Shown here: positions 7,375 through 41,158 of the stretch, piece after piece
Numbering within the stretch: position 1 is the stretch's first letter
Layout of the letters: every line of letters begins with the position of its first letter
Assembly (NCBI GenBank): GCA_965223075.1
Contig: OZ244986.1
Span: 3,116,101 to 3,180,100, forward strand
Length of the DNA: 64,000 nucleotides
Direction of reading: 5' to 3'
DNA from: Candidatus Marinacidobacterium sp.
GTDB taxonomy: Bacteria > Acidobacteriota > Vicinamibacteria > Marinacidobacterales > Marinacidobacteraceae
The notes under the pieces: model-generated
The model's input: the letters and a program-made list of their open reading frames with translations, nothing else
What the model was told of the DNA's origin: nothing
The model's database searches: none
Made by a program: the position numbers and the translations under genes

Positions 7375-7552
7375 CAGCGGTGCCGATCTGAAGGCCCCCA
7401 CCGGGAGAACTGGCCGGCGTTCCCAACCTGCGGGCCGCGGTGCCGGCCGGAAGACCGGCGCTCCAGGCCGTCCCCGCGCTTTCGCTCCGTTGGCAGCGCG
7501 CGTTTCCCGCACCTGCGGGCCGCGATGCAGGTGTGAACTCCGGCGCTCCCCG
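7375..7552 (-). repeat. REP-like hairpin cluster, one copy carrying the 15-bp insert
   Basis: Hairpins at about 7380-7424 (with GGCC-CCCACCGGGAGAACT-GGCC at 7393-7415), at 7440-7464, and a degenerate copy at about 7525-7552. Confidence 0.8.
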
Positions 7553-7605: not shown

Positions 7606-9663
7606 ATGGTAAAGATGATTCGTTTCTCCTCCGGCAGGCTTTCTGACCGGCCCTTGTTCCTTGGTGCGCTGGTGTGCGCCGGGACTGTGCTCGCCGCGTC
7701 CGCCGCGGCGCAGGAACCCGCGGAACTCGTGGTGGATCCGCCGGAACTGACGCTTGAGGTCGGGAAGACCGCCCAGCTCACCGCGACCGTCAAGGACGGC
7801 GACGGAAACACGCTCGAGCGCGGCGTGGTCTTCTTCTCCCGCGCCCGACGCTACGTCGGGGTGAACCCCGCGGGGATGGTGGAAGCCCATCGGCCGGGGG
7901 ACCAGACCCTGATCGCGATGGTGCCGAGAGAACCCGGCGCCATGGACCGGCGCGCCGAGCCGGCGCTCATGGTCGAGATCCCGGTGCGGGTTCCGTGGCC
8001 GCCCCTCGCGAGCGTCGAGATCGCGGCGCTCCCGGCAAACCTCTACGCCGGCACTTCGTTCCGGGTCAGCGCTCTCGCCCAGGATACTTCCGGCGCTGAG
8101 CGCAAGCCCGGCTTCGAGTGGTCCTCGAGCGACTCTTCGGTGGCGACCGTCAGCGAGCACGGAGTGCTCATGCTGCACGGCGAAGGCTCCGCGACGATCT
8201 CGGCGAGCGCCGAATCGGTGAGCGGCGAGGCGGCGATCTCGGTGAGCGCCAACCCGGCGGTCCGCCTCGACGTCTCCGCGGGCGAAGACGAGGTGCGGAC
8301 CGGCGACGTGGTCTGGTTCAGCGCCCGCGCCCTCGACGCGAGCGGCAACGAAGTCCCGGACTATCCCCTGCAGTACGCGGTCTCCACCCGCACGCCCGAC
8401 ACCCTGGTGGCGCCCGGTGCGGCCGCCTTCGTGGAGCCGGACGGCGCCTTCGTGGCCGAGCGTCCGGGGCTCCACACGGTGGTGGTCTCCGCGGGATCCC
8501 TCACCGCGCGGGAGACGATCCGCGCTACTCCCCGCAACGTGAAGAAGGACTGGGAGGTCGTGGGCCGCGGGCCCGTCCGCGACCGGCACACCTCGGATCT
8601 GTGGGTCTGGGAAGGCGTCGACGGACGTGACTACGCGATCACCGGGACCTGGGGCGCCGACGGGCACGCCTACTTCTGGGACGTGAGCGATCCGTCGAGC
8701 ATCCACCTGGTGGACACCGTCCGGGTGGACGCCCGCACGGTCAACGACGTCAAGGTCTCGCCGGACGGGAAGTTCGCGGTCATCAGCCGCGAGGGAGCCT
8801 CGAACCGGAAGAACGGCCTGGTCGTGCTCAATGTCGAGAACCCCACGGACGGGGTGAAGATCATCGCGCGCTACGACGACCAGATGAGCGGCGGCGTCCA
8901 CAACGTGTTCGTGGCCGAGAGCCACATCCTGGCCCTGTCCGCCGGGCGCCGCTACGACATCCTGAACGCCGAGGATCCGACGAACCCCTACCGGGTCGGA
9001 CGCTTCGAGCTGGACACCCCGGGTCACGGCATCCACGACGTCTGGGTGCAGGACGGCATCGCCTGGTCCTCGAACTGGACCGACGGTGTGGTTGCGGTGG
9101 ACATCGGCGGGGGAGACCTCGGCGGCGCCCCGAACGACCCGAAGATGATGGGGAGCTTCAAGTACCCGAATGGCTGGAACCACGCGGGCTTCCCCTACCG
9201 GAGCCAGTCCACCGGCAAGTTGATGGTGTTCGCCGGGGACGAAAGCTTCCCCTGGAGCTTCGACCCCGACGGGAAGCTTCCCGACCGGGCCGCCGGCTGG
9301 ATTCACATCGCCGAGTGGGACGAGGACGGTGGGGAAGGCCGGGAAGTGGCCCGCTACCAGGTGCCCGAGGCCGGCAGCCACAACCTCTGGGTAGAGGACG
9401 ACATCCTCTACGTCGGTTACTACAACGGCGGCCTCCGGGTGGTGGACATTTCGGGCGACCTGCGCGGCGACCTCTATCAGCAGGGCCGGGAGATCGCTTT
9501 CTTCGAGCCGGCCGATCCCGACGGCTACAAGCGGAACGCTCCCTTCGTCTGGGGTCCCCAGCCCTTCAAGGACACCATCTTCTTCACCGACTTCAACTCG
9601 GGGCTTTGGGCGGTCAAGCTCGTCGATCCCGAAACGCCGCGCAACATGGGAGAACCCAACTGA
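7606..9663 (+). CDS. Secreted Ig-like (Big_2-like) plus LVIVD-repeat beta-propeller protein, paralogue 1
   Basis: Signal peptide ending AAAQ, Ig-like TPxxxTLEVG/ATV segments, and LVIVD-like blades (LVVLNVENP, LRVVDISG). Confidence 0.85.
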   Translation: MVKMIRFSSGRLSDRPLFLGALVCAGTVLAASAAAQEPAELVVDPPELTLEVGKTAQLTATVKDGDGNTLERGVVFFSRARRYVGVNPAGMVEAHRPGDQTLIAMVPREPGAMDRRAEPALMVEIPVRVPWPPLASVEIAALPANLYAGTSFRVSALAQDTSGAERKPGFEWSSSDSSVATVSEHGVLMLHGEGSATISASAESVSGEAAISVSANPAVRLDVSAGEDEVRTGDVVWFSARALDASGNEVPDYPLQYAVSTRTPDTLVAPGAAAFVEPDGAFVAERPGLHTVVVSAGSLTARETIRATPRNVKKDWEVVGRGPVRDRHTSDLWVWEGVDGRDYAITGTWGADGHAYFWDVSDPSSIHLVDTVRVDARTVNDVKVSPDGKFAVISREGASNRKNGLVVLNVENPTDGVKIIARYDDQMSGGVHNVFVAESHILALSAGRRYDILNAEDPTNPYRVGRFELDTPGHGIHDVWVQDGIAWSSNWTDGVVAVDIGGGDLGGAPNDPKMMGSFKYPNGWNHAGFPYRSQSTGKLMVFAGDESFPWSFDPDGKLPDRAAGWIHIAEWDEDGGEGREVARYQVPEAGSHNLWVEDDILYVGYYNGGLRVVDISGDLRGDLYQQGREIAFFEPADPDGYKRNAPFVWGPQPFKDTIFFTDFNSGLWAVKLVDPETPRNMGEPN

Positions 9664-10796
9664 TGTCTTCCCGACGCTTCCGGCGCTTCCCGGCGTTCCT
9701 TCTCCTCCTCGGGCTCGTTCTGCTTCCGCTGGCGGTCGCCGCCGAGGATCCGGAGCCGCCGAAGCGCAACTACTTCGTCTACGTTTGCGCGGAGTCGGAC
9801 GACACGGTCCACATGCTCCGCTATGGGCCCGGCGGGTTCGAGGAACTCGACGAGATTGCGGTCGGCAGCTTCCCGACGGAAACCGAGGGTCCGCACGGGA
9901 TCAACATCTCGCCCGACGGGCGCCACTGGTTCCTGTCCATCGCCCACGGCATGCCCTTCGGTGCGGTGCACAAGTACGAGACCGGAACCAACGAATGGGT
10001 CGGGGACGCCACGCTCGGAATGTTCCCGGCGACCATGGACGTCTCGCCGAGCACCGGGCTGCTCTACATCGTCAACTTCAACCTCCACGGCGACATGGTC
10101 CCGAGCACCATCTCGGTGGTGGAGACGGGGACCATGATCGAGGTGGCCACCATCGACACCGGAGTCATGCCGCACGGAGCGCGGATGAACGACGCCGGCA
10201 CCCGCCTCTACTCCGTCAACATGATGGACGACGAGCTCGTCGAAGTGGACACCATGCGCTTCGAAATCGCCCGGCGGCTGCCGCTCGGGACCGACCCGCA
10301 TGCCGGACACGCTGGCATGAACGACGGCGACATGGAAGGCATGCGGATGCCGGTGGTCAAGCCGACCTGGGCCACCAGCCCTTCGCCCGCCGGGAAGGTG
10401 TACGTGGCGGGGAACGGCGACAGCGCCATCTACGAGGTGGATATCAACGACTGGAAGGTGTCTCGCCGGTTCGACGCCGGGCCCGGCCAGAACCCCTACA
10501 ACCTCGAGATCACCTCGGACGGCTCGGTACTGATCGCCACCTACAAATCCGGCAAGAAGGTCGGCTTCTGGGATCTCGAGCGCGGCGAGCTGATCGCCGC
10601 GCCCGAGACCTCGCGGCGGGTTCCCCACGGGGTGGTGGTGTCCGACGACGACCGCTACGCCATCGTGACCCTGGAAGGGGTCGGGGGCGAACCGGGGACC
10701 GTGGAGGTCTATGACATCGGAGCCGCCCAGCGCGTCTCCCGGATCGACGTCGGCAAGCAGGCCGGCGGCATCATCTACTGGAAGGGCGAGCCGTAA
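9663..10796 (+). CDS. YncE/YVTN-family beta-propeller protein with His/Met-rich loop
   Basis: Start overlaps the paralogue 1 stop (TGATG). Signal peptide, PHG repeats, TISVVET and the loop PHAGHAGMNDGDMEGMRMP. Confidence 0.85.
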   Translation: MSSRRFRRFPAFLLLLGLVLLPLAVAAEDPEPPKRNYFVYVCAESDDTVHMLRYGPGGFEELDEIAVGSFPTETEGPHGINISPDGRHWFLSIAHGMPFGAVHKYETGTNEWVGDATLGMFPATMDVSPSTGLLYIVNFNLHGDMVPSTISVVETGTMIEVATIDTGVMPHGARMNDAGTRLYSVNMMDDELVEVDTMRFEIARRLPLGTDPHAGHAGMNDGDMEGMRMPVVKPTWATSPSPAGKVYVAGNGDSAIYEVDINDWKVSRRFDAGPGQNPYNLEITSDGSVLIATYKSGKKVGFWDLERGELIAAPETSRRVPHGVVVSDDDRYAIVTLEGVGGEPGTVEVYDIGAAQRVSRIDVGKQAGGIIYWKGEP

Positions 10797-10822
10797 GGTC
10801 TCGCTGAGGAGGAGAGGAAACG

Positions 10823-12886
10823 ATGACTCTCAGGAATTCGAACCCATGGCGGCGGCTTGCCGCCGTCCTTCTTTGTGCTCTGGTGGCGCCCGGATTCGCG
10901 CTCGCCCAGGAAGAAGAGGAAGCCGAAACCGGCCCGCAACCGACGGAACTCATCATCACGCCGTCCGAGGTCGAACTCGAGGTCGGCGACTCGCTGACGC
11001 TTCAGTCCGAGGTCCGGGACGCCGAAGGCAACCCGATGGACCGCACCGTGGTGTTCTATTCGCGCCGCCGCCGGGCGGTGGGCGTGAACCCGGCGGGCAT
11101 CGTGGAGGCCTACCGGCCCGGCGAGCACACCCTGATCGCCATGGTGCCGAAGGATCCGGAAGACACCAACCGGCGCGCCGAGCCCGCGGTGATGTTGGAG
11201 ATCCCGGTGACGATCCCCAACCCTCCGGTGGCTACGGTCGAGGTAGCGAACGTGCCGGGCCATCTCTACGCGGGGACCGAGATCGGGCTCCGCCCGGTGG
11301 TCACCGACATCTCGGGCGCCGTCCGGAACGACGTGGAAGTCGGCTGGACGACCGCCGATTCGTCGGTGGCGAACGTGGATTCCCTCGGGGTGCTCACCCT
11401 GGTGGGCGCCGGCCGGACGACCCTCACCGTCTCCGCCGAGGAGGCGTCGAGCGACGCCGCGATCGAGGTGCTCGCCAACCCGGTGACCTCGATCACCCTG
11501 GCCGGGGCGCCGGATGACTCGGTCCGGACCGGGGACGTGGTGTTCTTCGAGGCGCAGGTGACGGACGCTTCCGGGAACGAGGTGCCCGACTATCCGGTGC
11601 AGTTCGCGACTCTCGGGGTCCCGACGGACGGCATCGTGGCGCCGGGCGCCATCGGCCAGGTGGACGAGGCGGGCGCCTTCGTGGCGGAGCGTTCGGGTAC
11701 CCACACCGTGATCGCCGATGGATTCACGAAGTCGGCGAGCGCGACGGTGGCGGTGGTCGCGCGGAAGGTGCGGAAGGATGTCGAGATCGTGGGGCAGGGC
11801 CCCGTCCGCGACCGGCGCACCTCGGACCTTTGGGTCTGGGAGGGCACCGACGGCCGGGACTATGCGGTGACCGGCACCCACAGCGCCGACGGACACGCCT
11901 ACTTCTGGGACGTCACCGATCCCTCGGCGATCAGCCTCATCGACACGGTGCGGGTGGACGCCCGGACGGTGAACGACGTGAAGGTCTCCGAGGACGGAAA
12001 GTTCTGCGTGATCAGCCGCGAGGGCGCTTCGAACCGGAAGAACGGGCTCGTGATCCTCGACGTGAGCGACCCGCAGAACGGGATCGAGGTGATCGCCCGC
12101 TACGACGACCAACTCACCGGCGGGGTCCACAACGTCTTCGTCGCCGAGGACCACATCTACGCGCTCTCGGCGGGACGGCGCTACGACATCCTGAACGCCG
12201 AGGATCCGACGAATCCCTACCGGGTGGGCCGTTTCGAGATGGACACCCCGGGCCACTCGATCCACGACGTGTGGGTCCACGAGGGGATCGCCTATTCGTC
12301 CAACTGGAACGACGGAGTCGTGGCGGTGGACGTTGGCGGCGGCGGCAAGGGCGGCTCACCGAACAACCCGGTGCTGCTGGGGAACACCCCCTATCCGAGC
12401 GGCTGGAACCACGCCGCCTATCCCTACAAGAGCCAGTCCACCGGGAAGTTCCTGATGATCGGCGGGGACGAGGCGTTCCCCTACCAGACGATGCGTGAGG
12501 AGCGCACCCCGGGGCGGGCCGCCGGCTGGATCCACATCTTCGAATGGGACGAGTGGGAGAGCGCCCGCGAGGTGGCGCGCTACCAGGTGCCCGAGGCCGG
12601 GACCCATAACCTCTGGGTCGAGGACGACATTCTCTACATCGCCTACTACAACGGCGGCCTGCGGGTCGTGGACATCTCCGGCGAGCTCCGGGGCGATCTC
12701 TACCGGCAGGGCCGCGAGATCGCGATGTTCCGTCCGTTCGACCCCGAAAGCCGGGTTCCGAACGCGCCGATGGTCTGGGGACCGCAGCCCTACAAGGGCC
12801 ACATCTACCTGACCGACATGAACTCGGGGCTCTGGGCCGTCAAGCTCGTGGACGCCGAACCGGTGAACATGGGAGAGCCCGAGTAG
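10823..12886 (+). CDS. Ig-like plus LVIVD protein, paralogue 2
   Basis: Full-length homologue of 7606-9663, with RBS GAGGAGAGG upstream. Confidence 0.9.
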   Translation: MTLRNSNPWRRLAAVLLCALVAPGFALAQEEEEAETGPQPTELIITPSEVELEVGDSLTLQSEVRDAEGNPMDRTVVFYSRRRRAVGVNPAGIVEAYRPGEHTLIAMVPKDPEDTNRRAEPAVMLEIPVTIPNPPVATVEVANVPGHLYAGTEIGLRPVVTDISGAVRNDVEVGWTTADSSVANVDSLGVLTLVGAGRTTLTVSAEEASSDAAIEVLANPVTSITLAGAPDDSVRTGDVVFFEAQVTDASGNEVPDYPVQFATLGVPTDGIVAPGAIGQVDEAGAFVAERSGTHTVIADGFTKSASATVAVVARKVRKDVEIVGQGPVRDRRTSDLWVWEGTDGRDYAVTGTHSADGHAYFWDVTDPSAISLIDTVRVDARTVNDVKVSEDGKFCVISREGASNRKNGLVILDVSDPQNGIEVIARYDDQLTGGVHNVFVAEDHIYALSAGRRYDILNAEDPTNPYRVGRFEMDTPGHSIHDVWVHEGIAYSSNWNDGVVAVDVGGGGKGGSPNNPVLLGNTPYPSGWNHAAYPYKSQSTGKFLMIGGDEAFPYQTMREERTPGRAAGWIHIFEWDEWESAREVARYQVPEAGTHNLWVEDDILYIAYYNGGLRVVDISGELRGDLYRQGREIAMFRPFDPESRVPNAPMVWGPQPYKGHIYLTDMNSGLWAVKLVDAEPVNMGEPE

Positions 12887-13026
12887 CCGGAAAGACTCAG
12901 ATCACCCGCAATCGGCCGCCGTGAGGCGGGCGAAACCCGGGCCGTTCTCCTACGAGACGATCGGCGAAGGCGGGAGGCACGGTCGGGCCGCCCGGCACAA
13001 TTTCCGGGCGCCATCCCGGCGGCGCC

Positions 13027-13647
13027 TCAACCGGACGGCAGGCGGAAGTCGCGCGGCCGGAACTCCGGCGGGTTGACGATGCTGGCGCTGCTGCCCGTCG
13101 CCCGGATCACGAACAGTCCCTTTCGCTCAGCGTAGCGGGCTGTTCCCTCGTGAGCCCGAAGGTACGCGACCGCGCCGTACAGTCGCCTGCCCCGGACATG
13201 CCGCAGCAGGGGCGGGTGCGCCAGCAGGCCGAGGAATCTGTCCACATCGGGCGGTCGCAGCGTGGTCTTGACCTCGACCGCCACCGCTTCTTCCCCGTTC
13301 GTCGCGAGGAGATCAACCTCGCGTTCGTTTCGGCCGCACTCCAGCCGGAGGCGTGAGGAGACGGCTTCCACCTCCACCCCGCGTTCCCGCAGCAGCCTCA
13401 GCAGGTCCCCCTCGACGAGCGATTCCACCAGCCGCCCCCACTGGCTGGTGAACAGATCTTCCGCGCGCCGCAACCGCCGGTCGGTTTCCTTCATCTGCCG
13501 GTCGGTTTCCTTCATCCGCTGCTCGTTTTCCTTTGTCAGCCGATCCATCAGCCGATCCGTCTCCGCCTGGCGCTTCGCCACTCGGTCCAGAATCTTCCAG
13601 ATTCCCTCCGGGGTTGCGGGTGTCGGATCCGCCTGGGTGATGCTCAT
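13027..13647 (-). CDS. DUF3782-like coiled-coil plus PD-(D/E)xK nuclease-fold protein
   Basis: KETDRQMKETDR heptad repeats, SQWGRLVESLV and EVDLLATNGEEAVAVEVKT. Confidence 0.8.
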   Translation of the reverse strand: MSITQADPTPATPEGIWKILDRVAKRQAETDRLMDRLTKENEQRMKETDRQMKETDRRLRRAEDLFTSQWGRLVESLVEGDLLRLLRERGVEVEAVSSRLRLECGRNEREVDLLATNGEEAVAVEVKTTLRPPDVDRFLGLLAHPPLLRHVRGRRLYGAVAYLRAHEGTARYAERKGLFVIRATGSSASIVNPPEFRPRDFRLPSG

Positions 13648-13793
13648 GGACGCTTCCCTCCCTGAAGTCTATGCCGGTGCAGCGGGCTCTGGCGCACGGT
13701 CTCTCATCATGGACAGACGAAATTCCGGCCCGTTTTGTCCCACCTTCGGCAGGCGATGTGGAAAACTCGCTGCGAAGATCGCCTGGCGGCGCC

Positions 13794-14279
13794 GCTGGAG
13801 CCATGCCGGCTACCCCTGCGGGGGCCCCTCCACCGGGAAGTTCCCGATGATCGGCGGGGATGAGGCGTTCCCGTACCAGACGATGCGGGGGGAAGCGCAC
13901 TCCGGGCCGGGCCGCCGGCTGGATCCACATCTTCGAGTGGGACGAGTGGGACAGCGCCCGCGAAGTGGCCCGCTACCAGGTGCCCGAGGCCGGAACCCAC
14001 AACCTGTGGGTCGAGGACGACATCCTCTACATCGCCTACTACAACGGCGGCCTGCGGGTGGTGGACATCTCCGGCGACCCGCGGGGGGACCTCTACCGGC
14101 AGGGTCGCGAGATCGCGATGTCCCGTCCGTTCGACCCCGAGAGCCGGGTCCCGAACGCCCCGATGGTCTGGGGACCGCAGCCCTACAAGGGCCACATCGA
14201 CGTCAGCGACATGAACTCGAGGATTTGGGCCGTGAAGCTCGTGGACGCCGAACCGGTGAACATGGGAGAGCCCGAGTAG
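13794..14279 (+). pseudogene. Partial duplicate of the 3' end of LVIVD paralogue 2
   Basis: Aligns by eye to 12402-12886 and ends in the same VNMGEPE*. Frameshifted near 13885-13895; no start codon or N-terminal domains. Confidence 0.9.
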
Positions 14280-14430
14280 GGGAAGAACTCAGGCCGGGAT
14301 CGCCCGCCGCAGGCGGGCGAAACGCAGAGCGCCGCTCAGCGTGGAGGCGCGGCGTCCGGTCTGGAGGCGGCGCGTCCGTTGGTGGCGACGGCTTCCGTTC
14401 GGAGGCGGATGAAAGTGCGGGCTGAGGGGC

Positions 14431-14787
14431 TCATTCCTCAGTCCGCCTCCATGAACGATCGAACTCCGCGCAAGCGTCCGTCGAGCGCGTTTCGGTCACG
14501 AGCTTCTCGATCTTGCGGATCTCCGCGAGGGTGTCTTGTTGAAGACTCCGAATCGCCTCTTCCGGCATCCCTTCTGCCCGAAACCTCGCCACGTCCTCCT
14601 CCAGGTGGTCGCGGAGCACGCTTCCGCAGGCGCGGGCGCGTACGGACAGCCCGTCCGGCCTGATCATGTCCGGACTCGGCGGATTCAGAATGGCGGTCAC
14701 GATGGAAACGACCGCGAAGGCGCCACCGATGACCCGCGCGAGCGCCGATTTCCACAGGGAGCGGAATACGTGGTAGAGGATTCGCAC
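14431..14787 (-). CDS. Hypothetical protein with one N-terminal TM helix
   Basis: GTG start, hydrophobic VIGGAFAVVSIVTAIL segment and a helical charged tail. Confidence 0.5.
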   Translation of the reverse strand: MRILYHVFRSLWKSALARVIGGAFAVVSIVTAILNPPSPDMIRPDGLSVRARACGSVLRDHLEEDVARFRAEGMPEEAIRSLQQDTLAEIRKIEKLVTETRSTDACAEFDRSWRRTEE

Positions 14788-15060
14788 AGTCTCACCGCCG
14801 GGTAGGTGCCGCCGACCGGGTTCTGCCTGGAGCGGGCCACCGGTGGCGCCAGCGGCGGAGGAAACACTGCCACGCAAGGGGTCCGGTTCCCCTCCATGCG
14901 GTCGTCATCTTGTCCGGGTCGCGACTGCGATCCTGCCCCCGCCAGCACGGAAGCAAGTAAGGAGCACCCGGTTAGCGTCTCCGGCTGCCGCCAAGGTGCG
15001 CAGGTGGCCGCGGTCCGGAGCCTCTCGGGACACCTTGAGGATCACGGCCACATCATCATC

Positions 15061-15070
15061 GTATATTCCC
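15061..15070 (+). promoter_or_regulatory. Putative -10 element shared by LVIVD paralogues 3 and 4
   Basis: GTATATTCCC at 15061-15070 and the identical sequence at 19605-19614, each upstream of GCACCATGACCCGAAC. Confidence 0.45.
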
Positions 15071-15092
15071 GTGCACAGAGGGACCGCGCACC

Positions 15093-17147
15093 ATGACCCG
15101 AACACTCCGCCTCCACCTCATTCCCGTTGCAGCCGTCGCGCTTCTCCTCCTCGCTCTCCCCGCGTTCGCCCAGGAGGAGGAAGTGGAAACGGGCCCGCAA
15201 CCGGCCGAACTCATCATCACCCCGACCGAGCTCGAACTCGAGGTCGGCGACTCGCTGACGCTCCAGGCAGAAGTCCGGGACGGCGAGGGCAACCCGATGG
15301 ACCGCACGGTGGTGTTTTACTCCCGCCGGCGCCGTTCGGTCGGCGTCAACCCGGCGGGAATGGTCGAGGCCTACCGGCCCGGCGAGCACACCCTGATCGC
15401 CATGGTGCCCAAGGATCCGGAGGACATCGATCGCCGCGCCGAGCCCGCGGTCACGGTGGAGATCCCGGTGACGATCCCCAACCCGCCGGTGGCTTCGGTG
15501 GAGGTCGCGAATCTTCCCGGCCACCTCTATGCGGGAACCGAGATCGGCCTCCGCCCCCTGGTCACCGACATCTCGGGCGCCGTCCGGAACGACGTGGAAG
15601 TGGGCTGGACTACGGTCGATTCGTCGGTGGCGAGCGTGGACGCCCTCGGGGTGCTCACCCTGCTGGGCGCCGGGCGGACGACCCTGACGGTCTCCGCCGA
15701 GGAGGCTTCGAGCGACGCGACCATCGAAGTGCTCGCGAACCCGGTCGCCTCGATCACGCTGAGCGGGGCGCCGGACGAGCCGGCGCGGACCGGGGACGTG
15801 GTGTTCTTCGAAGCCAAGGTCACGGACGCCTCGGGGAACGAGGTGCCGGACTACCCGGTGCAGTTCGCCACCTTCGGGATTCCGGCGGATGGGATCGTGG
15901 CGCCCGGGGCCATCGGCCAGATCGATGAGGAGGGCGCCTTCGTGGCGGAGCGGTCGGGAACCCATACGGTGATCGTGGACGGGTTCACCGACTCCGCGAG
16001 CGCGACGGTCGCAGTCGTGTCCAGGAACGTGCGGAAAGATGTCGAGGTCGTGGGACGGGGCCCGGTCCGCGACCGGCGCACCTCGGACCTCTGGGTCTGG
16101 GAGGGCACCGACGGCCGGGACTATGCGGTCACCGGGACCCACAGCGCCGACGGGCACGCCTATTTCTGGGACGTCACCGATCCCTCGGCGATCTCGCTCA
16201 TCGACACGGTTCGGGTGGATGCCCGGACGGTGAACGACGTGAAGGTTTCGGCGGACGCGAAGTTCTGCGTGATCAGCCGGGAAGGCGCCTCGAACCGGAA
16301 GAACGGTCTGGTGATCCTCGACGTCAGCGACCTGCAAAACGGCATCGAGGTGATCGCCCGCTACGACGACCAGCTCACCGGCGGGGTCCACAACGTCTTC
16401 ATCGCGGAAGACCACATCTACGCGCTTTCGGCGGGGCGCCGCTACGACATCCTGAACGCCGAGGATCCGACGAACCCGTATCGGGTAGGTCGGTTCGAGA
16501 TGGACACTCCCGGCCATTCCATCCACGACGTGTGGGTCCACGAGGGCATCGCCTATTCGTCCAACTGGAACGACGGGGTCGTTGCGGTTGACGTAGGCGG
16601 CGGTGGCAAGGGCGGGGCGCCGAACAACCCGGTGATGCTCGGCAAGACTCCCTACCCGAGCGGTTGGAACCACGCCGCCTATCCCTACCGGAGCAAGTCC
16701 ACCGGCAAATTCCTGATGATCGGGGGCGACGAGGCGTTCCCGTACCAACTGATGGAGGGCGCGCGGGCCCCGCGCCGGGCGGCCGGCTGGATCCACATCT
16801 TCGAGTGGGACGAGTGGGAGAGCCCCCGCGAGGTGGCCCGCTACCAGGTGCCGGAGGCGGGAACCCACAACCTGTGGGTGGAGGACGACATCCTCTACAT
16901 CGCCTACTACAACGGCGGCCTGCGGGTGGTGGATATTTCCGGCGAAATGCGGGGTGACCTCTACCGGCAGGGCCGCGAGATCGCGATGTTCCGCCCGTTC
17001 GACCCCGAAACCGTAAAGCCGAACGCACCGTTCGTCTGGGGACCGCAGCCCTACAAGGGCCACATCTTCATCGCCGACAACACTTCGGGGCTCTGGGCGG
17101 TCAAGCTCGTGGACGCCGAGCCAGTGAACATGGGCGAACCCCAATAA
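15093..17147 (+). CDS. Ig-like plus LVIVD protein, paralogue 3 (mosaic)
   Basis: First 29 aa are identical to paralogue 4; the body is closest to paralogue 2. Confidence 0.9.
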   Translation: MTRTLRLHLIPVAAVALLLLALPAFAQEEEVETGPQPAELIITPTELELEVGDSLTLQAEVRDGEGNPMDRTVVFYSRRRRSVGVNPAGMVEAYRPGEHTLIAMVPKDPEDIDRRAEPAVTVEIPVTIPNPPVASVEVANLPGHLYAGTEIGLRPLVTDISGAVRNDVEVGWTTVDSSVASVDALGVLTLLGAGRTTLTVSAEEASSDATIEVLANPVASITLSGAPDEPARTGDVVFFEAKVTDASGNEVPDYPVQFATFGIPADGIVAPGAIGQIDEEGAFVAERSGTHTVIVDGFTDSASATVAVVSRNVRKDVEVVGRGPVRDRRTSDLWVWEGTDGRDYAVTGTHSADGHAYFWDVTDPSAISLIDTVRVDARTVNDVKVSADAKFCVISREGASNRKNGLVILDVSDLQNGIEVIARYDDQLTGGVHNVFIAEDHIYALSAGRRYDILNAEDPTNPYRVGRFEMDTPGHSIHDVWVHEGIAYSSNWNDGVVAVDVGGGGKGGAPNNPVMLGKTPYPSGWNHAAYPYRSKSTGKFLMIGGDEAFPYQLMEGARAPRRAAGWIHIFEWDEWESPREVARYQVPEAGTHNLWVEDDILYIAYYNGGLRVVDISGEMRGDLYRQGREIAMFRPFDPETVKPNAPFVWGPQPYKGHIFIADNTSGLWAVKLVDAEPVNMGEPQ

Positions 17148-17203
17148 AGGAGAGACTCAGCAGTCGCGCGGGGACGCCGACAGTTCGGGTGGCGCGCAGG
17201 CAA

Positions 17204-17241
17204 GGGAACGCCGGCCAGTTCTCCCGGTGGGGGCCTTCAGA
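17204..17241 (+). repeat. Left half of a REP-like hairpin split by IS1634, containing the 15-bp insert
   Basis: GGGAACGCC-GGCC-AGTTCTCCCGGTGGG-GGCC-TTCAGA. The right half (TCAGACCGGCACCGCGGCCC) resumes at 19207. Confidence 0.8.
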
Positions 17242-19206
17242 GCGATAGTTCCAAGCGTTGCCAAGACCTAACTCGATGATAGTCGTGTAGTTATGGTTGC
17301 GTCGGGTTGTTCGGTCCTGGCTACATTTTGGGCTGGACGCCGAGGAGGTCGAAGCATCGCTGCTGGAGTGGGGAGGGCAGCGTCTGGAGGGGGAAGGTTT
17401 CGTCGCGGTCCTTGATCTTCACGGTGTTGAGGGCGATGGTGCCGAGGTTTTCGAGCAGATCCCGGAAGGCCTGGACGGAGAGGTCGTCCTCGGTGCGCTT
17501 CTTGGCGGCCTTTTTCTCGGCGGCGGGGGAGCGTTGGGCGGGGGCGACGATGGATCGGCGTCGGCTCTCGGCGGCGTCCTTTTGGTGGTCTTCGAAGAGG
17601 ATGGGGGCGAGGGCGCGGCGCATGTGCCACTCGATGTAGTAGGCGAGCGTGCAGAGGAGAACGTGGGCGCGCACCCGGTCACTGCGCCAGTGGTGGATGG
17701 GCCGGAGGAGTTCGATGGTTTTGAGGCAGCGGAAGGCGCGCTCGACGCGGGCGAGATCCTTGTAGGCGCGGACCGTTTGCTGCGCGTCGAAGCGTTCGGG
17801 TTCGACATTGGAGCGGACGACGTAGATGCCTTCGAGGGCGACTGCCTTTCGGATCTGGTCCTGGTTGCGCTGGAAGGAGAAGGAGGAATCGGTGATCTGG
17901 TGGGTGAAGAACTTGCCCACCTTGTAGCGGTCGATGACCTTTCCGAAGCGGGTGCCGATCTTGTCCTCGCCCCGCAGGGGCGCCCTCTCCCGCTGGGTGG
18001 CGACCACGATGCGCCGGAGGAGTTTTTCGGTGGCCTGCAGCAGGTCCTCGCGCTTTCGGCGCTGCTCCCCGGCCAGCTTGGGATTGCGGCAGACGATGAG
18101 CCGCTCGCCGGGGTATTCGTCGGAGGTGATTTCGAAGAGGTCGCGCTCCTCGAACAGGGAGGGGGGCGGCCGTTCGGCGTTGAGGAGCTTGCGGATCATG
18201 GGCTTGCGGAGGGAGGAGATCCAGCGCAGCCCCTCGACGCCCTGGAGGTCTTCGCGGATGCGGGCGGCGGTGAGCATGCCCCGGTCGCCGACCATCACCA
18301 ACCGTTCGATGCCGAAGGAGGTCTTGAGCTTTTGGAGCTGGCCGGCGACGGTCTGGGGATCGGTGGTGTTCCCGGGGAAGACCTCGACGGCGACCGGGCG
18401 GCCTTCGGGATCGGTGAGCAGCCCGATGACGATCTGGAGCTTGCCTTGCTTCTTGTCGCGGCTGTAGCCGCGCTTGGCGAGGGGGCAGTGCTTGCCCTCG
18501 AAGTAGGAGGAGGTGATGTCGTAGAGGACGAGGGTGTTGTCGGCGAGGTGTCGTCGGGCGAGTTTTTTCTCGATGGCGTGTTGGTGAGTGCCGAGCCAGT
18601 CGAGCGCGGCGTAGAGCTCGTTTTCATGGACAGGCCCGAGTTGGAGGACTTGGCCGAGGGAAGAGTGTTTGGTTTCGGGGTTGAGGGCGCGGCTGGTGGC
18701 GAGCTTGGAGCAGGGTTTGAGGACGCGGTTTGCGATCATGGCGGTGACGAGGTCGCGGTTTCGGGAGGGTTTTCGGTCGAGGAGGGAAGGGAGGCCGAGT
18801 CTGTGGAGGGTTCCGAGGATGGCGGCGACGTGTCCGTGGGGGAGGGAGCGGACGATGTCGATTGCCTCCCGGATGGGGATGTCGGCGAGGGTTGCGCCTT
18901 TGAGGATGCGTCGGAGCGATTCGACGGCGGCGGGGTTTCGTCGGTGGAGTTTGGTGAGGTTTGCGAGGGTGCGTTTGAGGACCTTGCGGCCGTCGCGGAC
19001 GGACTCTCGGAGGAGGACGGCGGGGGGGGAGCTGCGGTTGGGGACGAACTCAATATACATGGGCACGATAATAAGACACACAATACTGACAGTCAATAGT
19101 AAACATCACTCCACATGTTCTATTACATGGCTACAACATTGCATCCGAAAATCCCATAAACGACCATGAGTCACGAAGTTAGATCAGAAAACCGCTGGAA
19201 CTACCG
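17242..19206 (-). mobile_element. IS1634-family insertion sequence
   Basis: Transposase ORF; imperfect ~37-bp terminal inverted repeats (CGATAGTTCCA...CTAACTCGATGA versus CGGTAGTTCCA...CTAACTTCGTGA); TCAGA direct repeat at 17237-17241 and 19207-19211. Confidence 0.85.
17321..19060 (-). CDS. IS1634-family DDE transposase (579 aa from MYIEF)
   Basis: MYIEFVPNRSSPPAVLLRES, LYDITSSYFEG, GYSRD, VGDRGM and YKDLARVERAFRCLK...RPIHHW. Confidence 0.92.
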   Translation of the reverse strand: MYIEFVPNRSSPPAVLLRESVRDGRKVLKRTLANLTKLHRRNPAAVESLRRILKGATLADIPIREAIDIVRSLPHGHVAAILGTLHRLGLPSLLDRKPSRNRDLVTAMIANRVLKPCSKLATSRALNPETKHSSLGQVLQLGPVHENELYAALDWLGTHQHAIEKKLARRHLADNTLVLYDITSSYFEGKHCPLAKRGYSRDKKQGKLQIVIGLLTDPEGRPVAVEVFPGNTTDPQTVAGQLQKLKTSFGIERLVMVGDRGMLTAARIREDLQGVEGLRWISSLRKPMIRKLLNAERPPPSLFEERDLFEITSDEYPGERLIVCRNPKLAGEQRRKREDLLQATEKLLRRIVVATQRERAPLRGEDKIGTRFGKVIDRYKVGKFFTHQITDSSFSFQRNQDQIRKAVALEGIYVVRSNVEPERFDAQQTVRAYKDLARVERAFRCLKTIELLRPIHHWRSDRVRAHVLLCTLAYYIEWHMRRALAPILFEDHQKDAAESRRRSIVAPAQRSPAAEKKAAKKRTEDDLSVQAFRDLLENLGTIALNTVKIKDRDETFPLQTLPSPLQQRCFDLLGVQPKM

Positions 19207-19349
19207 TCAGACCGGCACCGCGGCCCGTTGTCGGGCTGGATGGCACCACCGGCAAGGGTCCCCAGCGGGAGACTGGGGCCGACATCCAGGTCGGCATCGC
19301 GCGCCTGAGGCGGGCGTGTGCCCCGTGCTCGGAGCCCGATCCGCGCCCT

Positions 19350-19547
19350 TCGGGACAACAACTTCACGAAAATGGCGATGAGTGCTGCGTTAACGAACAG
19401 CGCTCCATACACCAACCACCTGTAGATCCGCACGTCGCGCTCAGCCATCTCCAGCCGCAGATCGGCCAGGTCCTGTTTGCTGGCGAAGTTGGCCAGGTCC
19501 GTTCTCATGGCTGCATTCTGGGTCATTGGCTGAACCAGCGCCACCAC
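19350..19547 (-). pseudogene. DUF1640/CCDC90-like fragment
   Basis: FASKQDLADLRLEMAERDVRIYRWLV followed by a TM helix ending FVKLL. No clear native start; the track ORF runs on into the IS end. Confidence 0.35.
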
Positions 19548-19651
19548 CGACGAAACCTGCTTGCACCTCCACCGTACACGTGCGGTGTCGCGCTCGCGAG
19601 GCGCGTATATTCCCCGGTCATGGGGGACCGCATTCCGGCCCTCGCTGCACC

Positions 19652-21709
19652 ATGACCCGAACCCTCCGCCTCCACCTCATCCCCGTTGCGGCCGTCGCCC
19701 TGCTCCTCCTCGCCCTTCCCGCGTTCGCGCAGGAGGAGGCCGAGGAGACCACCGGTCCCGAGCCCACCGAACTCGTCGTCACCCCGAGCGAACTGACGCT
19801 GGAGGTGGGAGCGAACGCCACCCTCGAGGCTGAGGTGCGCGACGCCGACGGCAACGCGATGGAGCGCACGGTGGTGTTCTTCTCGCGGAGCCGCCGCTCG
19901 GTCGGGGTGAACCCCGCCGGGATCGTGGAGGCCTTTCGGCCCGGCGAGCACACCCTGATCGCCATGGTGCCGAGGAATCCGGAGCACACCGACCGGCGCG
20001 CGGAGCCGGCGGTCATGGTCGAGATTCCGGTTACCATCCCGAACCCGCCGGTCGCCACCGTCGAGGTCGCGAATCTGCCTGGCCACGTCTACGCAGGGAC
20101 CGAGGTCGGGCTCCGTCCACTGGTTACGGACACCTCGGGCGCCACCCGGAACGACGTGGGGGTTCGCTGGAGCACCGCCGATCCGTCGGTGGCGGGGGTG
20201 GACGCACTCGGGATGCTCAGCCTGACGGGGGCCGGTCGCACGACCCTCACCCTCTCCGCCGAAGAGGCTTCGACCGACGTCGGGATCGAGGTGCTTCCGA
20301 ACCCGGTCGCCTCGATCACCCTGACCGGGACCCCGGCGGAGGCCGTGCGCACGGGTGACGTCGTGTTCTTCGAGGCGAAGGTCACCGACGCCTCCGGAAA
20401 CGCGGTGCCGGACTACCCGGTCCAGTTCGCGACTCTCGGGATCCCGGCGGACGGCATCGTGGCGCCGGGGGCCATCGGCCAGGTGGACGAGTCCGGCGCG
20501 TTCGTGGCGGAGCGTTCGGGCACCCACACGGTGATCGCCGACGGGTTCACGACCTCGACGAGCGCCACGGTCGCCGTAGTGGCGCGCAAGGTGCGGAAAG
20601 ACGTGGAGATCGTGGGGCAGGGCCCGGTCCGCGACCGGTACACCTCGGACCTCTGGGTCTGGGAGGGCATCGACGGCCGGGACTACGCGGTGACCGGGAC
20701 CTGGGGCGCCGACGGCCACGCTTACTTCTGGGACGTTACCGATCCCTCCGCGATGTCGCTCATCGACACGGTGCGGGTGGACGCCCGGACCGTCAACGAC
20801 GTCAAGGTCTCCGAAGACGGAAAGTTCTGCGTGATCAGCCGGGAGGGCGCTTCGAACCGGAAGAACGGGCTCGTGATCCTCGACGTCAGCGATCCGCAGA
20901 GCGGCGTCCAGGTCATCGCCCGCTACGACGATCAGCTCACCGGCGGGGTCCACAACGTGTTCATCGCGGAGGAGCACATCTACGCACTCTCCGCGGGCCG
21001 GCGTTTCGACATCCTGAACGCCGAGGATCCGGAAAACCCCTACCGGGTCGGGCGCTTTGAGCTGGATACGCCGGGCCACTCCATCCACGACGTGTGGGTG
21101 GTGGACGGGATCGCGTATTCGTCGAACTGGGATGACGGAATTGTCGCGGTGGATGTGGGCGGCGGCGGCATGGGCGGCGCGCCGAACAACCCGGTGCTGC
21201 TGGGGAGCGCCCCGCATCCGAGCGGCTGGAACCACGCCGCCTATCCCTATAAGAGCCAGTCCACCGGCAAGTTCCTGATGATCGGGGGCGACGAGGCGTT
21301 CCCCTACCAGACCATCGGAGAGGCCAACACCCCTGATCGGGCCGCCGGCTGGATTCACATCTTCGAGTGGGACGAATGGGAAGAGGCCCGCGAGGTGGCG
21401 CGCTACCAGGTGCCCGAGGCCGGAACCCACAACCTGTGGGTCGAGGACGACATCCTCTACATCGGTTACTACAACGGCGGCCTGCGGGTGGTGGACATCT
21501 CCGGCGAACTCCGCGGCGACCTCTACCGCCAGGGCCGCGAGATCGCGGTCTTCTGGCCGCAGGATCCGGAGAGCTTCATCCCGAACGCGCCGATGGTCTG
21601 GGGACCGCAGCCCTACAAGGGTCACATCTTCGTCGCCGACCACCATTCGGGTCTGTGGGCGGTGAAGCTGGTGGATCCGGAGCCGGTGAACCTGGGCGAA
21701 CCGCAGTAG
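19652..21709 (+). CDS. Ig-like plus LVIVD protein, paralogue 4
   Basis: Full-length homologue; ATG 19652 matches the start of paralogue 3. Confidence 0.9.
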   Translation: MTRTLRLHLIPVAAVALLLLALPAFAQEEAEETTGPEPTELVVTPSELTLEVGANATLEAEVRDADGNAMERTVVFFSRSRRSVGVNPAGIVEAFRPGEHTLIAMVPRNPEHTDRRAEPAVMVEIPVTIPNPPVATVEVANLPGHVYAGTEVGLRPLVTDTSGATRNDVGVRWSTADPSVAGVDALGMLSLTGAGRTTLTLSAEEASTDVGIEVLPNPVASITLTGTPAEAVRTGDVVFFEAKVTDASGNAVPDYPVQFATLGIPADGIVAPGAIGQVDESGAFVAERSGTHTVIADGFTTSTSATVAVVARKVRKDVEIVGQGPVRDRYTSDLWVWEGIDGRDYAVTGTWGADGHAYFWDVTDPSAMSLIDTVRVDARTVNDVKVSEDGKFCVISREGASNRKNGLVILDVSDPQSGVQVIARYDDQLTGGVHNVFIAEEHIYALSAGRRFDILNAEDPENPYRVGRFELDTPGHSIHDVWVVDGIAYSSNWDDGIVAVDVGGGGMGGAPNNPVLLGSAPHPSGWNHAAYPYKSQSTGKFLMIGGDEAFPYQTIGEANTPDRAAGWIHIFEWDEWEEAREVARYQVPEAGTHNLWVEDDILYIGYYNGGLRVVDISGELRGDLYRQGREIAVFWPQDPESFIPNAPMVWGPQPYKGHIFVADHHSGLWAVKLVDPEPVNLGEPQ

Positions 21710-21743
21710 CGAGGGAACGTCAGTCTCCCGCCCGCCCGCGCGG

Positions 21744-22559
21744 TTACTCCTCGCGCCTCCCGGGAGCGCCCGGCAGCAGCGAAATGAGCCGGGCTCTGAC
21801 TTTTCGCGCCGCCGCTTCCAAATCCCACGAGTACCCGTGCGCGAGCAGGGGGGTGATGTCGCTGCCGAACTGCGGGTCGCGAACCTTGGCGGTGAGGTTT
21901 CGTTCAAACGTCGCGCGCCCTACGGGACCATCGGTGCGCGCCATGTGTTCGGCGAACGCCTCTGCGACGCGGGCGGGATTGACGGCGGCTCTGTCGAGAG
22001 CGGTGGCGAGATCGAACAGGTCGCGGCCCTTTTTGCGCTGGTAGAGCGCCCGCAACTTGGTGGCGAGCAGTTCGTCAAGTTCGTAGGTCACGACATCGGC
22101 GATTCCGCTGAACCAGCGCGAGGTTACGGTGAACGGGATTCTCACGAGCCCAAACACGGAGTAATGCTCGCGCGAGCTGATCTCGACCTTCAGGCGTAGC
22201 CGCAAAGGGGGCGTATCCTCGGAAGTGAAGCGGTAGATGAAGGTGACGCGGGCCTCGGTCTGCTTCCATTTCGGTTTGCCGAGCCAGGGATCCAGAGCCT
22301 CCCGCACGCCGTCCATGACCGGACCGATGGGTCCGGGGGCGGTCTGCACCAGATCAATGTCCTCCGAGTACCGCGCGGGCGGCGTCAGATAGAGCTTGTA
22401 GAGCGCAGTACCGCCACGAAACGCCAGCTCGCTGGCCACCGCCTCTTGGGAGAAGAGTTCGACCAGTGCCCGGGCGACGACCAGGTCCTGCTCGACCTGA
22501 GCATCCTGGACCCAGGGCGCCCGCGCTCGCCACTCGGTGACGTAGTCGCGCGGGATCAC
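21744..22559 (-). CDS. abiEii: AbiEii-family nucleotidyltransferase toxin (type IV TA)
   Basis: QVEQDLVVARAL, FRGGTALYKLY, RYSEDIDL and KLRALYQRKKGRDLFD. The GTG start overlaps the antitoxin stop. Confidence 0.9.
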   Translation of the reverse strand: MIPRDYVTEWRARAPWVQDAQVEQDLVVARALVELFSQEAVASELAFRGGTALYKLYLTPPARYSEDIDLVQTAPGPIGPVMDGVREALDPWLGKPKWKQTEARVTFIYRFTSEDTPPLRLRLKVEISSREHYSVFGLVRIPFTVTSRWFSGIADVVTYELDELLATKLRALYQRKKGRDLFDLATALDRAAVNPARVAEAFAEHMARTDGPVGRATFERNLTAKVRDPQFGSDITPLLAHGYSWDLEAAARKVRARLISLLPGAPGRREE

Positions 22560-23362
22560 GTCTCTACCTCGACTTCGGCGTTGATGCGCAGTCGCCACCG
22601 CCGGTCACGCGGCGGTCGGCCTTCGCTCGGGCTGCCCGGCACGAGCAGCACGGTGTCGTGCGCGCGGCGGCGCACGTCGCGCTGGAGGGACGATGCCTTG
22701 TCGGCGGCGCCAACAAGTTCGAGCAGGTGTCCGAGGCGCTGCGCCCAGGAGACCGGGGCCGTCTGGGCTGCCGCGGCGAGCCGATCCGGATGGATGTGCT
22801 CGGCGAGTTCCGCAATGATGGTCGCCGCCTGAGCCAGTCCCCCGATGCGTTTCTCGTAGCCGACCAGATCAACCGCGGTTGCTTCGAGGCTCGATACCCG
22901 GATCGCCCCCCGCGGCGTGTTGAAGTTCTGGACGGGAACCTCGGCGAGGTGCGAGCGGGTGATGAAGGAGACTGCGACTTTGCTGCAGGACATCGGCCGG
23001 CGATACCCGGCCAGCGCTACCTGGAAGGTTTGCGGGCGGTGGTGCGCGGCGCCGTGGTACTGGGCTGCCGACAGGAGCGCGGCGTAGTAGCGCCGATCGA
23101 GATGGGCCATTAACGCGGGGACGAACTGCTCGGCCGGCAGGCAGCCGAGGCGCCGGTACTCGGGGGGCACGACCACGTAGAACCCGCGCGCGGGACTCGC
23201 GATCAGCCCTTTGTTCGCCAGCCGGCTCAGAGCGAGTCTGGCCGCTGCCGGCGAGACGCCGAGCAACCTGCGCATCTCCGTCGCCGTGAAGTGATATCGG
23301 CCGTCAGCCGCAAGATCGGCAACCAGGCTGTTGGCCCGGCGTGGCCGTGTCTCCGATTTCAT
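22556..23362 (-). CDS. abiEi: AbiEi-family antitoxin
   Basis: N-terminal wHTH (RYHFT...LSRLANKG...RGFYVVVPPEY), YYAALLSAAQYHG and EATAVDLV; coupled to abiEii. Confidence 0.88.
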   Translation of the reverse strand: MKSETRPRRANSLVADLAADGRYHFTATEMRRLLGVSPAAARLALSRLANKGLIASPARGFYVVVPPEYRRLGCLPAEQFVPALMAHLDRRYYAALLSAAQYHGAAHHRPQTFQVALAGYRRPMSCSKVAVSFITRSHLAEVPVQNFNTPRGAIRVSSLEATAVDLVGYEKRIGGLAQAATIIAELAEHIHPDRLAAAAQTAPVSWAQRLGHLLELVGAADKASSLQRDVRRRAHDTVLLVPGSPSEGRPPRDRRWRLRINAEVEVET

Positions 23363-23376
23363 CGGAACAATATATC

Positions 23377-23389
23377 AGTATTCGATACT
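23377..23389. promoter_or_regulatory. Candidate AbiEi operator (inverted repeat in an AT-rich promoter)
   Basis: AGTAT-TCG-ATACT, 15 bp upstream of abiEi. AbiEi proteins are known to autoregulate through promoter inverted repeats. Confidence 0.4.
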
Positions 23390-23422
23390 TTATGCAGATG
23401 TTTACTATATCGCTCGTGAGCC

Positions 23423-23548
23423 GAGGACGACATTCTCTACATCGGATACTGCCACGGCGGCTTGCGCGTCGTGGACATCTCCGGCGAACTGCGCGGCGAC
23501 CTCTACCGCCAAGCACGCGAGATCGCGGTCGTCCGGCCGCCGGACCCG
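23423..23548 (+). pseudogene. Short internal duplicate of the LVIVD paralogue 4 3' region
   Basis: Translates to EDDILYIGYCHGGLRVVDISGELRGDLYRQAREIAVVRPPDP, matching 21443-21568. IGY plus EIAV together are diagnostic of paralogue 4. Confidence 0.85.
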
Positions 23549-24362: not shown

Positions 24363-24449
24363 TCAGGACTCTGGCTGGATTCGCGTTCGGAGCCGGCGGG
24401 GGGCGGATGCGTCGTAAGCCGCATCGGGTGCGGCCGGGTTCACAGTTGT

Positions 24450-24660: not shown

Positions 24661-24691
24661 AGGAGCCGCCACAGGTTGCTAACTCCAGGGA

Positions 24692-41151: not shown

Positions 41152-41158
41152 GGACGCA

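Follow-up and report, generated by a model that had tools for sequence, protein, structure and literature searches.

By what route do unrelated genes, many of them of a defence or toxin-antitoxin type, collect between the copies of a single gene family? This question is raised by a tandem array of LVIVD genes in the sponge-associated acidobacterium 'Candidatus Marinacidobacterium' sp. (Acidobacteriota, Vicinamibacteria), which lies at positions 7606-23548 of a 64,000-nucleotide stretch of contig OZ244986.1 (assembly GCA_965223075.1; this whole stretch is hereafter the window). Four full-length paralogues (P1 to P4) are encoded on the plus strand together with a beta-propeller gene (Y) between P1 and P2, unrelated cargo follows P2, P3 and P4, and partial LVIVD copies stand behind two of the cargo blocks (Table 1). 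Apart from Y, this arrangement was described by a first-pass annotation of the window, and it is confirmed by Pfam matches and coordinates; its interpretation, in which repeated genes of an expanding and contracting array supply the homology for gain and loss of cargo, is partly supported. The locus combines two known kinds of system, a hotspot and 3'-end displacement. Its best explanation, to which a probability of about 60% is assigned, is that an old P array frames a strain-variable hotspot, in which cargo arrives through insertion sequences (IS), integrase islands and displacement of gene 3' ends with homologous recombination.

Strain-variable cargo on a conserved backbone

Paralogues and fragments were defined from open reading frames (ORFs), Pfam scans and a self-BLAST of the window. 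An exact-product look-up of P3 returned no record, and strain loci were obtained from P3 homologues instead. Loci are cited below by L numbers, and ~45 related ones underlie the comparison of strains and species. A scan with one genome per species yielded 68 related loci, all from metagenome-assembled genomes (MAGs) of sponge- or coral-associated Acidobacteriota; these belong to Vicinamibacteria and 'Ca. Marinacidobacterium' and, more distantly, to Thermoanaerobaculia, 'Ca. Multivorans' and Holophagales. The gene caller, based on GC content at third codon positions (GC3), was noisy at 68% GC (antisense ORFs) and served to place candidates only, each of which was then checked against Pfam.

In the close clade, the backbone consists of an FG-GAP protein, proline racemase (ProRac), P1, Y, two further P genes, P4, a variably present CPBP protease, an S9 peptidase (S9) and an amidohydrolase. 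The P1-Y and Y-P junctions are always tight; the gaps between successive P genes, between P4 and its downstream neighbour and between ProRac and P1 range from ~30 bp to >4 kb. Spacer content turns over behind P2, P3 and P4 and also before P1, a position that is not between LVIVD genes. With conserved flanking genes and content that differs between close strains, the locus is organized like a core hotspot.

Comparison of strains bears out the cargo turnover that the first-pass annotation had proposed, and the locus is not static: at least ten states occur behind P4 in ~27 assemblies. Some contain AbiE genes (AbiE with a fragment of P4, AbiEi only with a fragment, a decayed AbiEii, or AbiE with Tiamat (TmtA)-like pieces), others an SMC/LmuB-like ATPase with an SbcD-like nuclease, a DUF4143 ATPase inside the fragment, or YaaC, and the sparsest hold CPBP only, nothing before S9, or nothing at all. 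The timescale of this turnover is short: cargo differs among seven contigs, drawn from two metagenome samples, whose P3 proteins are identical. L073 and L076 share 99.7% identity as far as the stop codon of P4 and once more starting at that of S9, with wholly different DNA in the middle, where L073 has AbiE and a fragment and L076 the SMC/SbcD-like pair; Tiamat-like pieces are added in L078, the site is empty in L071, and YaaC is found in L079.

Other slots hold PIN-MazE, a recurrent AAA ATPase, a TonB receptor with a sigma factor, or an integrase island with Dcm/DUF4928; an NCBIfam scan of the recurrent AAA ATPase and other cargo was uninformative. The spacer before P1 contains, depending on the strain, an OLD/AriA-like ATPase, an AEP primase with a patatin, a RecD-like helicase or a CN hydrolase. 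As had been proposed, defence and toxin-antitoxin genes account for much of the cargo (AbiE, OLD/AriA-like ATPases, LmuB-like with SbcD-like proteins, TmtA-like pieces, PIN-MazE, Dcm with DUF4928, and YaaC), and non-defence genes occur alongside (kinase-ankyrin proteins, TonB receptor, sigma factor and CN hydrolase) in what is a plain listing of contents. The cargo of the window is indeed all on the minus strand, as first noted, though relatives carry cargo on either strand and the pattern is no rule; the plus-strand gene Y had been omitted from that description.

An island of 17-24 kb is found behind P2-C1 on one contig (L008 13254-21959 and L067 1-5044), with comparable islands at L011 16015-21861 and L018 859-9666. 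It encodes an AAA ATPase, two Ser/Thr-kinase-ankyrin proteins, VWA, FHA and trypsin-FHA proteins, another kinase and an SNase-Excalibur nuclease, and may represent a conflict/signalling system or eukaryote-like symbiosis factors. A DUF7387 gene paired with a HicA toxin lies upstream of the FG-GAP gene in L070 (179-1005), L004, L006, L010 and L014, and this pair was not matched in the window.

Displaced 3' ends and switches inside repeats

The clearest recombination traces surround P4. The order P4-AbiE-fragment-S9 occurs in L067, L070, L072-75 and L077, where the fragment corresponds to the last 292-296 nt of P4 to the stop codon, and where the following 70-77 bp and S9 are the same as in strains with P4 directly before S9. 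Fragment and S9 of L073 are 99.3% identical to the P4 3' end and S9 of the empty-site locus L071, and the intact P4 3' end of L073 is only 93% identical to its own fragment. Two haplotypes of this 296-nt repeat are therefore distinguished, 'a' on the intact P4 and 'b' on the fragment next to S9. In L071 and L002, five diagnostic columns of P4 (218, 297, 331, 344 and 354) are of type 'a', and four further ones (374, 380, 407 and 410) as well as the flank are of type 'b', such that each gene has a single a-to-b switch inside the repeat; P4 of L069 is a second, different chimera. A switch of this kind is the product expected of a crossover between two direct repeats, and could reflect either pop-out of AbiE or, in reverse, single-crossover insertion of a circle. 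Joints located inside LVIVD sequence point to homologous recombination.

At P2, the donor-type end is likewise tied to cargo. The intact P2 of L008 is L002-like in mid-gene and L001-like (99-100%) from column ~1120 to the end, and the displaced P2 fragment of the same genome (L067) begins at column 1175 and is 97.9% identical to L002 P2 and 96.3% to its own P2. In the window, fragment 1 bears the type of terminator that P2 has in L001 and L002, both of them without C1, whereas the intact P2 has another, indel-marked type common to the C1-bearing L008. Given these differences in terminator and haplotype between intact gene and fragment, C1 appears to have come along with a new 3' end for P2, and the resident one to have been pushed downstream. 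C1 is also present behind P2 in L010 and L011, as it is in L008. Fragment 1 is frameshifted at the first variable loop of the encoded propeller, and the sequence of the nearest strain (L082) departs from that of the window between 13882 and 15059, one of the breakpoints falling within this fragment.

The signature of gene, cargo and 3' fragment is not exclusive to LVIVD genes, since it is also present at ProRac. In L008 (1144-6132), minus-strand genes for an AEP-like primase and a patatin-like phospholipase come after ProRac, then the last 834 nt of ProRac, and then P1. The two ProRac copies share a 696-nt exact match, and this event is accordingly recent. In all, displacement anatomy is found at P2/C1/fragment 1 and P4/AbiE/fragment 2 of the window and in L067, L070, L072-77 and L008.

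These traces are consistent with a route in which a donor segment, where cargo is joined to the 3' end and terminator of a P gene, would recombine into a resident P gene, in the simplest form as a circle through a single crossover. The resident 3' end would remain as a fragment downstream of the cargo, and the direct repeats so formed could then support RecA-type pop-out or re-insertion. Conserved P genes and their neighbours might also act as homology arms through which whole spacers are swapped between strains, presumably with movement of DNA between cells. The earlier proposal that LVIVD homology drives gain and loss therefore stands in part: joints do fall inside LVIVD sequence, but the homology concerned is mainly that of a displaced 3' fragment of the same paralogue and of flanking arms, and the pattern of unequal exchange between full paralogues was not seen. 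LVIVD homology is one route among several and no special property of the array.

Several observations weigh against this account. No circle or pop-out molecule was present in assembled contigs of public runs, in which joints are confounded by REP-like repeats; most reported joints have 20-nt sides within such repeats and are unable to show pop-outs or circles. For no individual event can gain be distinguished from loss. The cargo of L076 comes without a fragment, and simple replacement between flanking genes therefore also occurs. Cargo also enters via an IS and a tyrosine-integrase island with 53-bp repeats. The left ends of fragments cluster at P4 nt 1763-1790, which could reflect one ancestral event or a site-specific step. 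Finally, the repeats in the window are just 87-91% identical to their intact genes, with longest exact matches of 20 nt (fragment 2/P4) and 45 nt (fragment 1/P2), and further recombination at these scars hence seems unlikely. The AbiE cassette is old in the window, as AbiE with a fragment of the same boundaries is found in both subclades (window nt 1785-1917, L006 nt 1789-1917); with both scars old and diverged, the C1 and AbiE cassettes of the window are now probably fixed.

A bolder form of displacement can be entertained tentatively, with the odds against it. The small defence and selfish cassettes of these symbionts may be integrase-free units that carry the 3' end and terminator of a conserved host gene, either a P paralogue or ProRac, as a homology handle, circling out and docking by single crossover. 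Docking in the same gene of another strain by host recombination would then leave the target gene intact, and tandem similar genes would offer side-by-side docking sites, which would explain why cassettes pile up at the array.

Other explanations and known systems

The most serious alternative, though an unlikely one, is an ordinary hotspot in which conventional mobile elements enter permissive intergenic or REP sites, random deletion follows, LVIVD homology is irrelevant and the fragments are debris. The IS of the window fits such a process. As the first-pass annotation recognized, it is an IS1634-type element in a REP-like repeat: its transposase matches NF033559 with 328 bits (cut-off 100) and Pfam DDE_Tnp_1 at 8.8e-13, and a TCAG 4-bp target duplication is present on either side of 17242-19206. 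The sister strain L082 (~98% identical) retains the empty site, GGGGGCCTTCAGACCGGC. The ends, GATAGTTCCAAGCG and GGTAGTTCCAGCG (reverse complement), form imperfect terminal inverted repeats of ~14 bp that were missed by an inverted-repeat finder and were placed from the L082 empty site. The element is multicopy, with a word depth of 400-560 compared to ~80 for its flanks (5-7x; runs X4 and X5), and the IS-less joint 17233->19207 is present in public-run contigs, as L082 confirms. This IS thus entered the REP-like repeat by plain transposition.

An integrase island is also present at the array of a relative: the loci L005 (8843-15805) and L020 (1-4409) of one MAG contain a tyrosine-integrase island with 53-bp direct repeats in the REP-like spacer behind P2, encoding a pentapeptide protein and a DUF4928 and C-5 methylase pair. 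The equal variability of the ProRac-P1 spacer, the fragment-less cargo of L076 and the transposase and defence remnants elsewhere in the window likewise suit an ordinary hotspot. It does not account for the clean a-to-b switches inside the 296-nt repeat of empty-site strains, for the donor-type 3' end tied to cargo at both P2 and P4, or for the gene-cargo-3' fragment signature at three genes.

REP-like repeats themselves occur at ~10 sites of the window, including 648-782, 4025-4514, 7378-7550, 17160-17241, 26767-27483, 31086-31356, 41152-41280 and 48762-48915, and have a depth ~10x that of unique sequence in public runs. Most variable slots hold such repeats, and the tight junctions are without them.

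It is improbable that the cassettes are degenerate integrative elements that target gene 3' ends site-specifically, bring a replacement end and depend on a recombinase encoded elsewhere. The near-equal left ends of fragments in many strains, noted above, would be expected of such elements, as would the 6-7% divergence of the element-linked 3' end from the displaced one and the tyrosine integrase in this slot in L020. However, the AbiE, C1 and AEP-patatin blocks are without a recombinase, the L071/L002 crossover lies mid-repeat and not at a fixed core, and the targets are three unrelated genes, whose repeats span 296-941 nt and in one case include an exact match of 696 nt. In the array of the window, Pfam and NCBIfam scans of the ORFs of 7606-23548 found no recombinase besides the IS transposase, in agreement with the integrase-free reading of the first-pass annotation.

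Array contraction only, with the fragments as remains of fifth and sixth full paralogues whose 5' parts were deleted, has a slightly poorer chance still. In its favour, species of the wider clade have anywhere between 1 and 4 copies, the two subclades order P2 and P3 differently and paralogues of distant species cluster by genome. Yet at empty sites, the intact P4 3' end with its flank matches the displaced P4 fragment and S9 flank at 98.7-99.3% identity, the fragment at ProRac is a recent and exact copy derived from a single-copy gene, and the fragments are of P2 type and P4 type with no separate lineage. An assembly artefact, in which dispersed paralogues or strain haplotypes were wrongly joined, could be suspected of a strain-mixed metagenome whose repeats break short-read contigs, but the array is not mis-assembled, given that >20 independent assemblies, circular chromosomes among them, share its gene order, that Logan contigs of public runs span its unique junctions with zero mismatches and even depth, and that its diverged repeats would not collapse, so that the chance of such an error is minimal.

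Displacement with homologous recombination, the preferred account, has its closest precedent in the rhs genes, for which a model of C-terminal displacement was proposed: a circle holding a conserved fragment and downstream genes is excised by homologous recombination, and its single-crossover insertion shunts the old tip (Jackson et al. 2009; PMC2935791). Both systems consist of an intact gene, new DNA and a displaced 3' fragment sharing conserved sequence, with no involvement of an integrase. They differ in that the incoming and displaced tails are here equivalent (91-100% identical) rather than alternative toxin tips, that the cargo consists of unrelated genes (AbiE, nuclease, primase with patatin) rather than cognate immunity genes, and that propeller genes and a proline-racemase gene of Acidobacteriota serve as hosts. 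A reading of the P genes with their orphan tips as polymorphic toxins was rejected, as the tails are conserved and without toxin or immunity genes.

In core defence hotspots of Pseudomonas aeruginosa (e.g. cDHS1), exchange through conserved flanks was proposed but left open, and how defence islands without mobility genes are built was described as an open question (PMC10250203). The present locus resembles them in its conserved marker genes, in defence content that varies between close strains and in the frequent lack of mobile-element hallmarks. In contrast to these hotspots, it has several adjacent slots set between paralogues from a single family, direct recombination traces in the form of displaced 3' fragments and switches within genes, and non-defence cargo (kinase-ankyrin proteins, TonB receptor and sigma factor).

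Islands at the 3' ends of tRNA or protein genes are similar insofar as the element supplies a 3' end to its target and the native end becomes the far-side direct repeat; the cassettes described here are distinct in lacking an integrase, in repeats of hundreds of nucleotides and in crossover inside the repeat. Integrons and superintegrons are also chromosomal sites that gather small promoter-less or toxin-antitoxin cassettes, but the array cassettes are separated by full-length functional genes, and no intI was found among the ORFs of 7606-23548 (attI/attC sites were not searched for). The locus hence offers sequence-level traces, in natural strains of uncultivated sponge symbionts, of one route of island building, in which a replacement 3' end comes in, the resident end is displaced and gain or loss follows by recombination within the repeat. 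This would extend a model proposed just for rhs toxin tips to ordinary genes and to defence/toxin-antitoxin cargo, and its main value lies in the clear evidence that natural populations provide for cassettes being gained and lost without an integrase.

The P genes, their products and other features of the window

The array itself is old. In a neighbour-joining (NJ) tree of 97 full P copies (MAFFT FFT-NS-2 alignment), four orthologous groups are recovered, each with members from two subclades, and P1-P4 therefore predate the split of these species as an old, vertically inherited tandem array; pooled dS within an orthologous group is ~0.33-0.37. The expanding and contracting array of the first-pass annotation is at odds with these stable groups. 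The distant Acidobacteriota classes have a single P beside a single Y, and this pair is the ancestral unit there. The array is nevertheless not frozen, as indicated by an order swap, copy number, a conversion tract and moved spacers. The order is P1-Y-P2-P3-P4 in the subclade of the window and P1-Y-P3-P2-P4 in the other, with no inversion involved, and more distant species carry 2-4 P copies that cluster by genome. P2 (6888-8966) and P4 (12633-14690) of L002 share a tract of 150-250 nt that is 99-100% identical (columns 1250-1400), compared to ~85% outside it, and which represents recent gene conversion within one genome. Spacer types are shuffled between slots among relatives.

P1-P4 encode secreted proteins of 684-687 aa, each composed of three Ig-like (Big_2) domains and a seven-bladed LVIVD propeller, with a Sec-type signal peptide and with Pfam Big_2 and LVIVD matches. 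Nucleotide identity by self-BLAST is 87.5% for P2/P3, 85.5% for P2/P4, 83% for P3/P4 and ~78% for P1 against the others. PF08309 (LVIVD) scores 21.2 bits in P1, 31.9 in P2 and 30.0 in P3 (gathering cut-off 20.2), and homologues of the P genes carry precomputed PF08309 matches. The proteins fall outside the Choice-of-anchor B family (TIGR04312), as P1 and P3 score 49.6 and 75.2 bits against an NCBIfam cut-off of 100, with matches confined to the C-terminal ~100 residues. An AlphaFold (AF2) model of P3, built from 34 sequences (mean pLDDT 80.7), predicts three Ig-like domains followed by a beta-propeller. In Foldseek, the propeller aligns to 7-bladed G-beta/WD40 chains (TM-score up to ~0.7 on the target), and other matches of the model are generic S-layer and Ig arrays. 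A PDB sequence search gave nothing relevant, and no enzyme relative was found by this search and Foldseek combined; the 'catalytic-looking core' of the first-pass annotation thus loses its basis, and no catalytic site is evident.

The two loops that differ in each copy, correctly quoted in that annotation, show the strongest paralogue specificity within the propeller; loop 1 (residues 549-563) has a pLDDT <50 in the model. Between paralogues, dN/dS is 0.38-0.55 in the loops and 0.13 in the propeller core, whereas within orthologous groups it is 0.08-0.19 and 0.08 respectively. From these ratios, high between paralogues and low within groups, it follows that the loops diverged after duplication and have been conserved since. 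Ongoing diversifying selection on them was ruled out by the ratios within orthologous groups, where they are under purifying selection, and the pattern would be compatible with four stable binding specificities. Paralogue-specific surface loops and a conserved partner gene make the P proteins candidates for surface or host-interaction roles, in a symbiont group known from metagenomes only.

Table 1. Features of the array and its right flank, in window coordinates.
Feature	Position	Strand	Description
P1	7606-9663	+	LVIVD/Big_2 paralogue; most divergent of the four
Y	9663-10796	+	YncE/lactonase-like beta-propeller gene; tight to P1 and P2
P2	10823-12886	+	LVIVD/Big_2 paralogue; 3' end and terminator (to 12936) of cargo-linked 'a-type' haplotype
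C1	13027-13647	-	Small Hjc/PD-(D/E)XK-like nuclease with N-terminal coiled coil
Fragment 1	13791-14323	+	P2 nt 1577-2064 (last 488 nt) and 'b-type' terminator; 89-91% identical to P2
C2	14431-14877	-	Hypothetical ORF in a 736-bp segment unique to the lineage of the window
P3	15093-17147	+	LVIVD/Big_2 paralogue
REP-like repeat	17160-17241		Multicopy intergenic repeat; IS insertion target
IS1634-family element	17242-19206	-	Transposase 17321-19096; inserted in the REP-like repeat behind P3
D_122	19179-19547	-	Small coiled-coil/TM ORF; no family match itself
P4	19652-21709	+	LVIVD/Big_2 paralogue; longest ORF starts at 19526
AbiEii	21744-22559	-	Nucleotidyltransferase toxin family; 271 aa, as in homologues; Pfam 2.9e-37, PADLOC 2.4e-104
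AbiEi	22556-23362	-	Antitoxin/regulator; AbiEi_1 5.3e-45, AbiEi_4 1.3e-08
Fragment 2	23416-23548	+	P4 nt 1785-1917; 87% identical to P4
Right flank	23700-26761		Variable
CPBP	~23700-24362	+	CPBP intramembrane protease
S9	24692-26761	-	S9 peptidase

GC content is ~68% across the whole window, and a compositional island is not seen. Among the cargo, C1 had been described as a DUF3782-like nuclease; the nuclease assignment holds (Hjc/PD-(D/E)XK, 21.8 bits against a cut-off of 21.1), but DUF3782 is sub-threshold (E=0.043). C1 was also considered as a possible free-standing homing nuclease, by which co-conversion would be driven. L082 has another spacer at the position of C2. D_122, originally counted as a DUF1640-like cargo fragment, is part of a repeated spacer upstream of P genes and not cargo, since it is found upstream of both P3 and P4 in L072-78; a homologue does have a weak DUF1640/CCDC90 match, and the last ~9 codons of D_122 are replaced by the IS.

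The identification of an AbiE pair is upheld, as abiEi lies upstream of abiEii in a bicistronic arrangement with a 4-nt overlap, the gene organization that would be expected of an AbiE type IV toxin-antitoxin system. AbiEii relatives at 85-99% identity are all found behind P4, and one at 75% (L083) belongs to an unrelated toxin-antitoxin island of another genome. The start of the longest abiEi ORF is 54 nt from fragment 2 (23362-23416). The abiE promoter and operator may lie in or against this fragment, which could partly explain its retention. In public runs from another host, depth is low over C2, the IS and AbiE-CPBP.

In the right flank, the presence and order of CPBP and S9 differ among relatives, and both genes seem to be variable content in their own right. 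At S9, identity to L002 and L067 is 98%, compared to 90-94% for neighbouring genes; both S9 and CPBP are missing from L001 and from distant species, and their order is CPBP-S9 in the window and S9-CPBP2 in L069/L070, with both present in L080. A contig of the nearest strain (L081, 3896-5158) has an extra IS110-family element between the amidohydrolase and S9, which the window lacks. Elsewhere in the window are a second S9 peptidase paralogue (46736-48724), ~73% identical to that at 24692-26761 over part of its length, an IS3-type transposase remnant (HTH_Tnp_1; 45217-45966) and, beside unannotated ORFs, a DUF2357 protein that is possibly restriction-related (55782-57693).

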